A DNA stretch of 52,144 nucleotides from Candidatus Iainarchaeum sp. (GTDB lineage: Archaea; Iainarchaeota; Iainarchaeia; Iainarchaeales; DTGL01). Made by a program: the position numbers. The stretch spans positions 1-52,144 of the forward strand of contig JAWALG010000001.1 of the NCBI GenBank assembly GCA_038886995.1. Reading direction: 5' to 3'. Shown here piece after piece: positions 30,001-33,000 of this stretch. Within the stretch, counting starts at the first letter, position 1. Every line of letters starts with the position of its first letter.

Positions 30001-33000
30001 AAGTTCGCATTTGTTTCATTTGCAACTGCTTTCGCAAGCAATGTTTTTCCTGTGCCTGGGGGGCCATAAAGGAGCACTCCTTTCGGTGGTATTATACCTA
30101 AGCGTCTGAAAAGCTCCGGGTGTCTCATTGGCAACTCAACCATTTCCCTTATTTTCATTACTTGCTCTTTTAGCCCGCCTATGTCTTCATAAGCAACAGT
30201 CGGTATGCCTTCTGGAACTTCTTTTGCTGGTTTTTCCTTAAGAATAAATTCAGTAAGCTCAGTAACCTTTACAATGCCCCTTGGCTTTGTGCCAGTAACC
30301 TTATAGACAAAGCCAGAGCCAAATACACTTATCCAGACACTGTCGCCTTGGCATAGAGGCCTTCCGAGGAAAGTCCTCTTAAGAATCTTGTTGTAGCTTG
30401 ATGCAATGATTCTTATGCGCTGCGTTGGTGCCAGCACAACCTCTTGTGCTTCTTTGTAATCTGCAGCCCTTACTATAACTGTGTCGTTGAGGCCTATGCC
30501 TGCGTTGTGCCTTATGAAGTGATCCATCCTTATTATTTCCTTACCTTCATCTTCTGCCCTAGCAGGCCAGACAATTGCTGCTGTTGTCCTTGCGCCTTTT
30601 ATTTCAACAATGTCACCGCTGCTTATGCCAAGGGCTTCCCTAAGTTTTGAGTCCAAAGTAACTATGTTCCTGCCAACATGCGCAGGGTCTGCATCTTGAA
30701 CTCTTAACTTGAGCTCCTTTTTTTGCATCTTTACACCTTTTTTACACCTTTACAAGGTCTTCACTAATGTTCCATTATATTCCACTAATATCCACTAATA
30801 TAATTGATTTAATCCTTATAAATGTTGCCTTAAAGTTCGGGAAAAAACAGCAAAAGCATCTTGACGATTTTAAAAACAAAAATAAGAAAAATAAAAATAA
30901 GATAAGGAGAGGTGCAAAAAGCACCTTCCAATTCACAACAGACCAATTTATCTTGCCATTAGTTGCCCGTTAGCCAGATGTTAGCCGCATGTTCCGACTA
31001 TTGGCTTTGCACCGACTAGCTTCTTATCATAGGTACTGCCTTCAATTCTATACGTTATTATAAGAGGGTACTGATAGCCTGATCCTGCATTACACCCTAA
31101 ACCTGAAAAAGTCAGTGATGAAAGAGTTTTTGATTCACCTGCATTTAAAACCAGATCATTCGCTGATGCTACCTTGCCATTTAGGTTGATATCTATAACA
31201 GTTATTTTTTCAGTACCTACATTCTTAAGTGTAAAGTTGCCCGTATTACCACCGATCTGCCAGTCCGTTACTGCTATTGGTGAAGTTCCTTGCCAATAGG
31301 CCTTGCTCTGTTGTTCTGTTATGGCTCCGCCAAGGCCTGGGAACCAGCCCATCACTCCTGCAACAACAAGTGCAATTATTATTATTACAGCCAAAATAAT
31401 CAAATACTCGGTTGTTCCTTGTCCTCTATTTTTCATCACATTACCTCCTTACAGTATTGTTTAAGTAATATTTATTGATACACCGGAGTTTAAAATACTT
31501 ACTTTTTGCCAAATTGGTTTAAATCAGGCCTTTAAACGCTTTGTTTTTATTGATAATCAGCAAAAATATAGGTAGCAACCGGTGTCCTTATGGAGATTGA
31601 ACTTAACCTTGATGAAAGCATTCACAAGAACATTGGCAACTATTTTGAGAAGGCAAAAAAGGCAGAAGCGAAGGCAAAAAAAATCAGGGACGCAATGAAA
31701 GTCGTTGAGCAAAAGATTAAAGAGCTTGAAAGCAAAAAGCAATCTGAAGAGAAAAAGCTTCCTGTTGTGAAAAGACCTCGTGCATGGTACGAAAAATTCC
31801 GTTGGTTTTTCTCAAGTGAGGGCTTCTTGGTATTAGCAGGCAGGGATGCCGCCACAAATGAGATCTTGGTCAGCAAGCACATGAATCCAGAAGATTTGTA
31901 TTTCCATGCAGATATTTATGGCGCAGCACATTGTGTTCTTAAAACTGAAGGTAAAAAACCTGGAGAAAATACTATGCAAGAGGCAGCAGTTTTTGCAGCA
32001 GTTTGTAGCAAGGCCTGGCCTCAAGGATTGGCAGCAGTAGATGTATACTCTGTGAAACCAGAACAGGTTTCAAAAAAAGCACCTAGTGGCGAGGCACTTG
32101 GTTTCGGCGCATACATGATTTACGGAAAAAGGAACTGGTTCAAGAACACGCCTTTAAAATTTTCAATAGGAATAGAAAAGGCGGGTGATTATTACAGGGT
32201 AATTTCAGGGCCACCTGAAGCTATAGAAAAAAAAGCAATAGTTTTTTTCAGTGTTTTTCAAGGCAAAAAGAAAAAAAGCGAAGTAGCAAAGCAGCTCAAG
32301 GCTGCCTTTGAAAAACACGCAGAGTGCCAGATAAGCATTGATGAGATAATGCAAATGCTGCCAGCAGACAATGTTGAAATCCAAAAAAGCGAATGAAAAG
32401 CTTAGATAAGATTATAAAGCAGTTTAAATAATATATTCTTGGTGAATATGATACTGCTGTATGCATTTGTGGTTCTTCTTTATATCTTGGCATTTGCCAT
32501 AACACTTGCAATATGCAAAAAGCTATATGGCGGTGGCTTTTCAATGGCCTTGCCATACCTTATATCTGCAGTAGGCCTGTTCGCGGTTGTAAACATAATA
32601 AAGCTATTTGCAAGCGTCAATGGAGTTCCTTACAACATAACTGATGCACCTGACCTTTGGGTCAGCATAGAGATAGTTTATATTCTTGCAGGCGTAATGT
32701 TTGTCTCAATGCTCTACCAGTTTTATCACACCAGCTATGTAACACGCGGCTGGGAGGAATGTAAATGATTGAGCCAATGTTCTTTTCTCTAATAGCTGGC
32801 ATAAAACTTGGAATTTTCCTAATAGCTTTTTTCCACTCAATAATAGTTGCTAGGTTTGCGAAGCTAAAGGAGTTGGAACTTTTCATATCAGTGAGCTTAA
32901 TCTATGTCTCAATTGCAGCAATAGAAGTTGTATACATTTACCAGCATTTTGGAAAAATACCCAATGCAATTCCTGAGCAGTTTGTAATTTACAGCGGCCT

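Follow-up and report, generated by a model that had tools for sequence, protein, structure and literature searches.

The analysed DNA, a stretch of 52,144 nucleotides (the window), belongs to an archaeal genome of 865,833 bases in 38 contigs with a completeness of 88.57%. Its phylum, Iainarchaeota, is named Diapherotrites/Iainarchaeum in public records. At the rqcH locus (Table 1), the sole long ORF starts with ATG and has its stop codon within the given coordinates. In a profile search, the product of this gene (the C-half) was aligned with positions 380-644 of the archaeal RqcH profile NF041120 RqcH_arch (length 645, cut-off 400 bits) at 332.4 bits and an E-value of 6.8e-99. Moreover, residues 69-179 matched Pfam NFACT-R_1 with 119.3 bits. 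The closest fused relatives shared at most 47% identity with the C-half. The preliminary description had read this half as CC2 plus NFACT-R/C. CC2 and NFACT-R were both recovered, while the NFACT-C label was not confirmed, since no Pfam match to NFACT-C (PF11923) appeared in the last 85 residues at E-values up to 0.01. Residues 1-10 were coil when the C-half was modelled alone.

Table 1. Features of the rqcH C-half gene and of its conserved neighbours in the window.
Feature	Residues	Position	Strand	Basis
CDC48-family AAA ATPase		28554..30728	-	TIGR01243, 1075.4 bits, over cut-off
TATA-like A/T-rich box, candidate own promoter		31562..31570	+	20-28 nt 5' of the ATG; read off the sequence
rqcH C-half gene		31590..32396	+	268 aa and stop; NF041120 match; model with mean pLDDT 89.1; NEMF, Rqc2 and RqcH as top fold matches
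Predicted final strand for the M sheet of the N-half	1-10	31590..31619	+	In alignment, falls on the final M strand of fused forms
CC2 helix	11-54	31620..31751	+	Single 44-residue helix in the model
NFACT-R domain	66-180	31785..32129	+	PF05670
C-terminal alpha/beta domain of archaeal RqcH	182-266	32133..32387	+	Confident fold; collinear with NF041120 to 644
HTH protein, weakly Lrp/AsnC/ArsR-like		42991..43593	-	phmmer match to the L162 neighbour gene, E 3.7e-64; weak family matches

Exactly two NF041120 matches were found in the genome, neither of them over the cut-off, and the second was located at C18:16091-17065(-). The corresponding ORF, L002:1363-2538(-), equals C18:15956-17128 without the stop codon and encodes 391 aa (the N-half), which were aligned with profile positions 10-337 at 163.9 bits. 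No single polypeptide exceeded 400 bits. The N-half contains an NFACT-N domain (Pfam NFACT_N, PF05833, 116.6 bits), and its model, with a mean pLDDT of 88.5, shows a helix at residues 288-347 and three M strands. Foldseek matched this model to NEMF, Rqc2, RqcH, 3doa and Fpg/MutM, NFACT-N having an Fpg-like fold. In the alignment of 23 N-halves, Arg104 of NFACT-N was kept in 22 and Glu118 in all. These residues align with Asp-Arg in yeast Rqc2, a motif that is Glu-Arg in the window's genus; this acidic-Arg motif and the Glu are used in tRNA binding by RqcH and Rqc2. RqcH is encoded here by two genes on different contigs, as previously described, and both ORFs and all the earlier figures were reproduced.

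The position of the break was determined with a reference HMM built from 116 fused archaeal RqcH proteins. The N-halves of the phylum have their C-termini at HMM positions of about 385-394, and the C-halves, those of the phylum's other orders included, start at HMM 394/395 with residue 2-3. The junction alignment placed the cut in the turn of an M-domain beta-hairpin, where the coiled-coil arm has its far tip. The antiparallel CC1/CC2 coiled coil with its M tip is present, divided over two chains. CC1/M had been assigned to the N-half and CC2 to the C-half; these elements are all present in the models, but the cut does not fall between M and CC2. It lies inside M, leaving three strands in the N-half and the last strand in the C-half. 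The two lengths (391 and 268 aa) add up to 659 aa, compared with 650-670 aa in fused forms, and the break is clean, with no sequence lost or gained at the junction.

The split was claimed for every examined genome of the phylum, and a scan of 215 genomes bore this out. Matches were found in 213 of them, and none was over the cut-off (0/215), while four of the 14 named control genomes were over it. There were two or more matches in 192 genomes and none in 2; in the other 21 only one match was found, which counts against a heterodimer, though all the genomes are incomplete assemblies. Among 31 genomes with a full match listing, 27 had both halves, and the remaining four, which are incomplete, had the C-half alone (G005, G012 and G017) or the N-half alone (G026). 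The halves are also unlinked, as had been stated. They lie on different contigs in the window's genome and about 36-254 kb apart on single contigs of relatives, namely about 254 kb on the sole contig, of 1,241,428 bases, of G028, about 118 kb on the same contig in G030 and about 36 kb on an 839,632-base contig in G014.

It might be argued that two pieces of RqcH in a fragmented draft genome of 38 contigs reflect a break in the assembly, a frameshift or pseudogene formation, and in a few relatives (G011 and G019) the halves are themselves in two pieces. The same pair of intact ORFs was nevertheless found in hundreds of independent assemblies, single-contig genomes included. The start position of the C-half and the stop codon of the N-half are conserved, and dN/dS was 0.04-0.14 for both halves, which indicates that both are under purifying selection and that the gene is truly split rather than broken. 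A contig from a second assembler, probably from the same sample and for that reason weak support, showed no difference from window positions 30700-32700. An artefact or a decaying gene is refuted by these comparative data, and we give such an origin almost no credence. Covalent rejoining of the halves through a split intein or RNA trans-splicing would be a way back to a single chain, and Nanoarchaeum equitans offers a precedent with its intein-split DNA polymerase and trans-joined tRNAs (Table 1 of PMC3655853). But there is no added sequence at the junction: the N-halves end a few residues from HMM 393, the C-halves begin at 394, and the summed lengths equal the fused protein. No intein halves flank the break, nor are there extra junction residues. 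Furthermore, the C-half has an ATG and the N-half a stop codon of its own, so that rejoining appears very improbable.

A more serious alternative is that the halves have gone separate ways, the C-half as a free RNA-binding NFACT-R protein, perhaps with CDC48, and the N-half as a free tRNA- or ribosome-binding protein, with no stable heterodimer between them. Solo NFACT-R proteins, CCDC25/Jlp2, exist in eukaryotes (PMC4075521), and CCDC25 structures were among the fold matches of the C-half. The two genes are also unlinked and have distinct conserved neighbourhoods, with CDC48 beside the C-half and a PRC-barrel gene beside the N-half. However, when the two halves were modelled as a complex, the score was 0.69, 0.69 and 0.68 in three runs, compared with 0.01 for the best control. 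In the calibration of the method, 116 of 157 solved complexes and 2 of 215 mismatched pairs attained this mark. At least 82% of the contacts agreed between the runs, and the partner pLDDT was at least 75. In the modelled interface, residues 289-345 of the N-half lie antiparallel to residues 11-50 of the C-half (CC1/CC2), and residues 373-379 of the N-half pair with residues 1-8 of the C-half, which adds a strand to the sheet. This pass may reflect the model's memory of the solved one-chain structures of RqcH, NEMF and Rqc2, and it shows likeness rather than binding. Beyond the confident predicted interface, both halves keep complementary coiled-coil helices and M strands with no obvious solo use, and they are retained or lost jointly, since 51 of 61 genomes of a second phylum have both, 2 have a single half and 7 have none (the last one carries a fused gene). 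By sequence, the C-half is far nearer to NEMF (E 1.1e-30) than to CCDC25 (E 0.0033). Separate roles are therefore considered unlikely. A solo NFACT-R identity of the CCDC25/Jlp2 type was rejected for the C-half, because its collinearity with RqcH 380-644 takes in CC2 and the M strand and because NEMF is the closer match.

The gene fission of RqcH is genuine, as its exact site, its conservation and the selection on both halves show, and we consider it probable that the protein functions as two subunits. Assembly in trans, as proposed in the preliminary description, is the best reading of the complex model, of the co-occurrence of the halves and of the purifying selection on both. NFACT-N, the HhH region, helix CC1 and three strands of M are located in the N-subunit, whereas the C-subunit has the final M strand and CC2, followed by NFACT-R and the C-terminal domain of archaeal RqcH. 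The separately translated chains would bind each other and re-form the native arm, with CC1 and CC2 zipping into an antiparallel coiled coil and the first strand of the C-subunit joining the sheet of the N-subunit. The heterodimer would then bind the ribosome and act as an ordinary RqcH, with its tailing activity, on obstructed large subunits with peptidyl-tRNA. One point against a heterodimer is the faster evolution of the N-half, which shows 68% identity in a genome pair where the C-half shows 81%.

The split had been described as a phylum-wide trait. This is correct for the whole phylum, but the trait is not restricted to it, since a second GTDB phylum (named after Woese- and Nanoarchaeota) and proteins named Altiarchaeales/Altiarchaeota share the same break. 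Genomes were scanned directly in the two GTDB phyla; Altiarchaeota are covered by protein names, and Micrarchaeota by a published table. In the second phylum, 168 of 201 sampled genomes had a match, 3 of them over the cut-off, and the 20 N-halves that were fetched all terminate at the same strand, so that the break is the rule there. The fission is ancient, and two or more GTDB phyla of DPANN archaea share it at one and the same site.

When the C-terminal region was analysed with a quick IQ-TREE run on 235 rows, the split forms did not make up one clade and 16-17 changes were needed. The starred branches of this tree force 9-10 changes, while its deep branches are weak and some 'short' representatives are gene fragments. 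Six fused genes were nested in a clade (SH-aLRT 99) with 70 split forms of the second phylum, which suggests re-fusion. No scar was seen at the junctions of the fused forms in the junction alignment. In an AU test on a subset of 89 rows, of which 67 were split forms and 22 fused forms or outgroup, the tree with all split forms together was not rejected (p 0.195). The tree and the AU test show neither re-fusion nor a single origin.

CDC48 adjoined the C-half in 33 of 40 Iainarchaeota loci. In the window it is divergent from the C-half because of a local inversion, and a second CDC48 paralogue lies on C17. Across most of the phylum, the orthologue of the window's HTH gene shares the strand of the C-half and is usually located just 5' of it. 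The conserved HTH - rqcH-C - cdc48 cluster in Iainarchaeota is new here. Eukaryotic Rqc2 acts in a Cdc48-containing complex, whereas the link to CDC48 in Iainarchaeota is one of gene adjacency in a single phylum. A literature search on archaeal RqcH with Cdc48 and the proteasome returned a single general review.

These observations can be joined in a single scenario, which we put forward tentatively and regard as rather doubtful as a whole. The M-domain hairpin would have been cut a single time, in an ancestor shared by Iainarchaeota, the Woese-/Nanoarchaeota phylum, Altiarchaeota and Micrarchaeota, a rare genomic change which would mark DPANN, the disputed Altiarchaeota included, as one lineage. 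The few fused genes of Woese- and Pacearchaeota would be secondary re-fusions, and in Iainarchaeota the C-subunit would have become locked in an operon with a CDC48 paralogue. If this were true, it would point to an archaeal route that hands tailed nascent chains to Cdc48 and the proteasome, as a forerunner of the eukaryotic RQC-Cdc48 link.

To our knowledge, all work to date on RqcH/NEMF, a universal ribosome-rescue factor, has dealt with a single chain. A natural two-piece RqcH, with the halves as a predicted pair and the cut at the ribosome-contacting tip of the arm, suggests that the covalent link is dispensable there. It would also be a ready-made system to separate the role of the tRNA-binding NFACT-N from those of NFACT-R. 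The break point that several DPANN phyla have in common may bear, as a candidate rare genomic change, on the disputed monophyly of DPANN, and the conserved rqcH-C/cdc48 pair of Iainarchaeota is a testable hint on how archaea dispose of rescued nascent chains. The halves score below the cut-off, and the only names given to their genes at present are 'NFACT RNA binding domain-containing protein' and 'DUF814'; therefore cut-off-based annotation calls RqcH absent in the split phyla.

The fission itself is already on record, without comment, in a fusion/fission screen (mSystems 2024, PMC11237513). Table S2 of that study lists cluster 73, CL0303(H2TH)-CL0684(NFACT_RNA-bind), arCOG01695, as 'fission', and counts 114 split proteins, non-syntenic and from 57 assemblies that are for the most part DPANN (Micrarchaeota 16, Woesearchaeota 12, Altiarchaeales 8, Nanoarchaeales 2, Nanoarchaeota 2 and others). 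The entry is a table row only, without the break point, a structure or the RqcH function, and Diapherotrites is not named in its visible cells. NFACT, Rqc and COG1293 do not occur in the main text of PMC11237513. No paper was found in a literature search for DPANN RqcH, aRqcH and arCOG01695.

In Nanoarchaeum equitans, NEQ438/506 are likewise unlinked halves of an informational protein in a DPANN archaeon, and they may be the same gene as the split RqcH. The ground for this is COG1293, which, we assume, was once named 'predicted RNA-binding protein'. A literature search for the locus tags NEQ438 and NEQ506 gave no match. As in the C-half, the NFACT-R of CCDC25/Jlp2 is free-standing, beside a coiled-coil segment; the C-half also keeps the RqcH-type N-terminal M strand, CC2 and the archaeal C-terminal domain. 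NEMF and Rqc2 were the best sequence and fold matches of both halves (9gy4_Z and 8aaf_a), although each of these eukaryotic proteins, unlike the split halves, is one chain that exceeds 1000 aa and carries long inserts. Compared with archaeal RqcH (NF041120, 'aRqcH') and B. subtilis RqcH (PDB 7AS8 and 7AQC), the order of the domains is identical (NFACT-N, HhH, CC1, M, CC2, NFACT-R and the C-terminal domain), but here it is carried by two polypeptides from unlinked genes, each of which scores below 400 bits.

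The RqcH C-half gene in the window matched positions 380-644 of the 645-position archaeal profile NF041120 with 332.4 bits (cut-off 400 bits), and a complete Pfam NFACT-R domain was found at residues 69-179. In the source genome (865,833 bases, 38 contigs, completeness 88.57%), there was one single further match to this profile, on contig C18. This N-half gene covered profile positions 10-337 with 163.9 bits, and its match to Pfam NFACT_N scored 116.6 bits. Every figure that the preliminary description gave for the two halves was reproduced.

Coordinates of the two rqcH genes, their modelled parts and their neighbours (L002, fetched locus on contig C18)
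Feature	Position	Strand	Remarks
rqcH C-half	window 31590-32396	+	ATG-started ORF, 268 aa
C-half model	residues 1-268		in order: 10 unstructured residues; long helix 11-54 (CC2); NFACT-R; confident C-terminal alpha/beta domain 182-266
rqcH N-half	L002:1363-2538 (C18:15956-17128 without stop)	-	ORF, 391 aa
N-half model	residues 1-391		in order: NFACT-N; helical HhH region; long helix 288-347 (CC1); 3 strands 353-379; disordered tail
CDC48	window 28554-30728	-	TIGR01243, 1075.4 bits
HTH gene	window 42991-43593	-	orthologue of the phylum's C-half neighbour
C-half flank	window 30981-31439	-	
C-half flank	window 33083-33637	+	
C-half flank	window 33634-35573	-	
PRC-barrel gene	L002:1098-1358 (C18)	+	convergent to N-half, 4 nt from its stop
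AMMECR1	L002:118-714 (C18)	+	~650 nt from N-half in the source genome

The break point was located with an HMM made from 116 fused archaeal RqcH proteins. The N-halves of 22 relatives reached HMM positions ~385-394 right at their C-terminus, while the C-halves of 18 relatives, including those of the phylum's other orders, had position 394/395 at residue 2-3. Judged from these alignments, nothing is missing or doubled at the break. Moreover, the two halves sum to 659 aa (391 + 268) compared with 650-670 aa in fused forms, which leaves no space for intein halves. The start of the C-half was conserved among relatives, and all N-halves stopped directly after one common strand. The dN/dS of both halves was 0.04-0.14, with 0.138 in the sole pair whose synonymous changes were unsaturated. 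In NFACT-N, an arginine was retained in 22 of 23 N-halves and a glutamate in all 23, and both residues align with the part of yeast Rqc2 that holds its Asp-Arg motif. These results show that the split is a real and conserved gene fission rather than damage.

The structure models of the N-half and C-half had pLDDT values of 88.5 and 89.1, and the top fold matches of both were NEMF, Rqc2, and RqcH. In the alignment with fused proteins, the cut fell in the turn joining the final pair of M-domain strands. The proposed division into a CC1/M half and a CC2 half was thus close to correct, except that the cut runs through the M domain, and the label NFACT-C for the end of the C-half found no support in Pfam. 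Some N-halves were single frames of ~290-310 aa (L024/L027 at G212:C70, G223:C1:303179-303994, and G233:C36:5229-5999), which matched only profile positions ~1-160 and ~255-370, the HhH region apparently missing.

Assembly of the halves in trans, as previously proposed, was modelled with N-half residues 285-391 and C-half residues 1-185. Three runs scored 0.69, 0.69, and 0.68, and the highest score among three controls was 0.01. In the calibration, 116 of 157 solved complexes attained this mark, as did 2 of 215 mismatched pairs. The runs had at least 82% of contacts in common, with a partner pLDDT of at least 75. The modelled interface was as expected, with CC1 antiparallel to CC2 and a strand of C-half residues 1-8 alongside N-half residues 373-379. 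Since single-chain structures of RqcH, NEMF, and Rqc2 have been solved, this pass may reflect a memory of known folds, and the model shows likeness to those folds rather than binding. Independent support came from co-occurrence: both halves were present in 27 of 31 Iainarchaeota genomes. Among 61 sampled genomes of a second phylum (the GTDB phylum holding Woese-, Pace-, and Nanoarchaeota-named genomes), 51 had both halves, 2 had one, 7 had none, and 1 had a fused-length gene. This evidence is supportive only, because related genomes are not independent. The two-gene RqcH is most likely a heterodimer, predicted to re-form via its coiled coil.

Within Iainarchaeota, NF041120 matched in 213 of 215 genomes, including all 58 of high quality, and no genome exceeded the cut-off. 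The nearest proteins to the C-half carried the names Candidatus Diapherotrites or Iainarchaeum, while the nearest fused proteins, which came from Thermococcus, Pyrococcus, and Bathyarchaeia where a source was named, had at most 47% identity. An exception was an unbroken fragment (profile positions 290-644) at G211:C115:6-1052 (locus L016), on a 1,962-base contig of genome G211, which additionally holds split pieces of its own for both the C-half and the N-half. This fragment clustered with the fused protein P0085, apart from the split forms, in an initial FastTree built on the C-terminal region, and it is probably a foreign contig. Genome G198 (contamination 3%) had two distinct C-half genes (L019/L181 and L021/L188), with CDC48 downstream of one only.

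The split had been described as a trait of this phylum, which holds throughout it but is too narrow. Among the best 150 representatives from a library of 1.84 billion proteins, roughly 40 were short forms with an identical start residue, including one named Nanoarchaeota and one Altiarchaeales, and the remainder were fused. A scan of species genomes gave 80 loci, comprising 67 split C-halves, 12 fused genes, and 1 with an in-frame stop. The 67 C-halves started at HMM positions 383-395 (60 of them at 392-395), and the titles of split loci were Woesearchaeota, Nanoarchaeia, Nanoarchaeota, Nanobdellota, Aenigmatarchaeota, Iainarchaeum, and 'archaeon'. In the second phylum, 168 of 201 sampled genomes (each at least 80% complete) had a match to NF041120, 3 were over the cut-off, and one more carried a full-length gene under it; all 20 N-halves fetched there ended past the same strand. 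A search with the Altiarchaeales protein, covering only lengths of 145-464 aa, returned 1,599 proteins with E up to 1e-20, and 11 of the 120 matches listed bore Altiarchaeales or Altiarchaeota names, some on contigs of 0.5-1.4 Mb. These results indicated that the fission is DPANN-wide. One locus (L100, titled Bathyarchaeia) held an RqcH that was full-length apart from a single in-frame TAG at about locus position 2497, 2-3 residues past the DPANN break point, yielding frames of 403 and 280 aa with the reading frame unchanged. This TAG may reflect an error in sequencing, a split of recent origin, or a codon that is read through.

Then, a tree of the RqcH C-terminal region (235 rows) was built. 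The second phylum formed a clade of 76 rows (SH-aLRT 99) with 70 split and 6 fused forms, the fused ones nested within, and the main Iainarchaeota order formed a clade of 32 split rows. Deep branches were weak, with the other Iainarchaeota orders scattered among fused forms. In an AU test on 89 rows (67 split and 22 fused or outgroup), a tree uniting all second-phylum split forms was not rejected (p 0.195). The nesting of fused genes among split forms in the tree was thus not confirmed by the AU test; the junction alignment of the fused forms revealed no scar. The second-phylum minority with a fused RqcH of 602-660 aa comprised genomes G217, G218, G237, G308, G311, and G402 and loci L059, L071, L076, L109, and L110, and the M domain was shortened in L059, L071, and L076. 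In two second-phylum genomes (L052 and L147), both halves lay on one strand with the N-half 1.3-1.5 kb upstream, possibly a step towards re-fusion. Because the break site is identical, a single ancient fission is an attractive hypothesis.

The neighbourhood of the C-half was compared in 40 loci (L149-L188; 39 genomes, 33 of the 37 families of Iainarchaeota, 3.5-kb flanks). A CDC48-family ATPase adjoined the C-half in 33 loci, 31 times immediately downstream in the same orientation (often at a distance under 100 nt) and twice convergently; two of the other seven loci lay on contigs too short to judge. An HTH protein of ~180 aa was encoded on the same strand, usually immediately upstream, in 30 loci. 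The phylum's ancestral order is therefore HTH - rqcH-C - cdc48. This cluster was disrupted in the window, which fits an inversion of ~11 kb. Genomes G002 and G004 had the CDC48 side of the inversion in common, with CDC48 upstream on the opposite strand, and their loci stopped short of the HTH gene, while G003 retained the ancestral order. The source genome also encoded another CDC48 paralogue, 60% identical to the first. CDC48 was not beside rqcH in the second-phylum split loci or in the 12 fused loci. Among relatives, such adjacency does not count as independent functional evidence; the CDC48 link is a lead. In the window, the C-half was flanked by a fragment of a KaiC-like ATPase gene, by genes for two polytopic membrane proteins, one with homologues beside the C-half in six second-phylum loci, and by a pilin-like gene encoding a class III signal peptide. 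These genes look like a type IV pilus-like cluster, which the window had in common with G002 and G004 only. On the N-half side, the PRC-barrel gene abutted the N-half in all 22 N-half loci of the phylum.

COG1293 was formerly named 'predicted RNA-binding protein'. For this reason, an entry of that name in Table 1 of PMC3655853, with one split site common to N. equitans (NEQ 438-506) and Nst1, may be the same gene. In Table S2 of PMC11237513, cluster 73 (H2TH-NFACT_RNA-bind, arCOG01695, K24971 NEMF/RQC2) was scored as 'fission', with 1,221 composite proteins. Its split proteins comprise 14 that are syntenic, from 7 assemblies, and 114 that are non-syntenic, from 57 assemblies (Micrarchaeota 16, Woesearchaeota 12, Altiarchaeales 8, 'Archaea' 6, Korarchaeota 2, Nanoarchaeales 2, Nanoarchaeota 2, and singletons). 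A term search of that paper's main text returned no NFACT, Rqc, DUF814, or COG1293. The split genes named in passages of the DPANN review PMC6349945 are others only, and a literature search returned no publication on aRqcH, RqcH in DPANN, or arCOG01695. As the fission is DPANN-wide and already in a published screen, the novelty first attributed to it was overstated. The present analysis adds the precise site of the break, a structural rationale for reassembly, evidence of selection on both halves, the distribution over at least two scanned phyla, and the rqcH-C/cdc48 cluster in Iainarchaeota. Furthermore, passages of PMC4075521 report solo NFACT-R proteins in eukaryotes, with no split described there, and a gene neighbourhood of NFACT that is conserved in archaea and includes Mut7-C and AMMECR1. 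AMMECR1 lies near the N-half here, as it does near the fused archaeal NFACT genes, so the N-half may still occupy the original locus, with the C-half having relocated.
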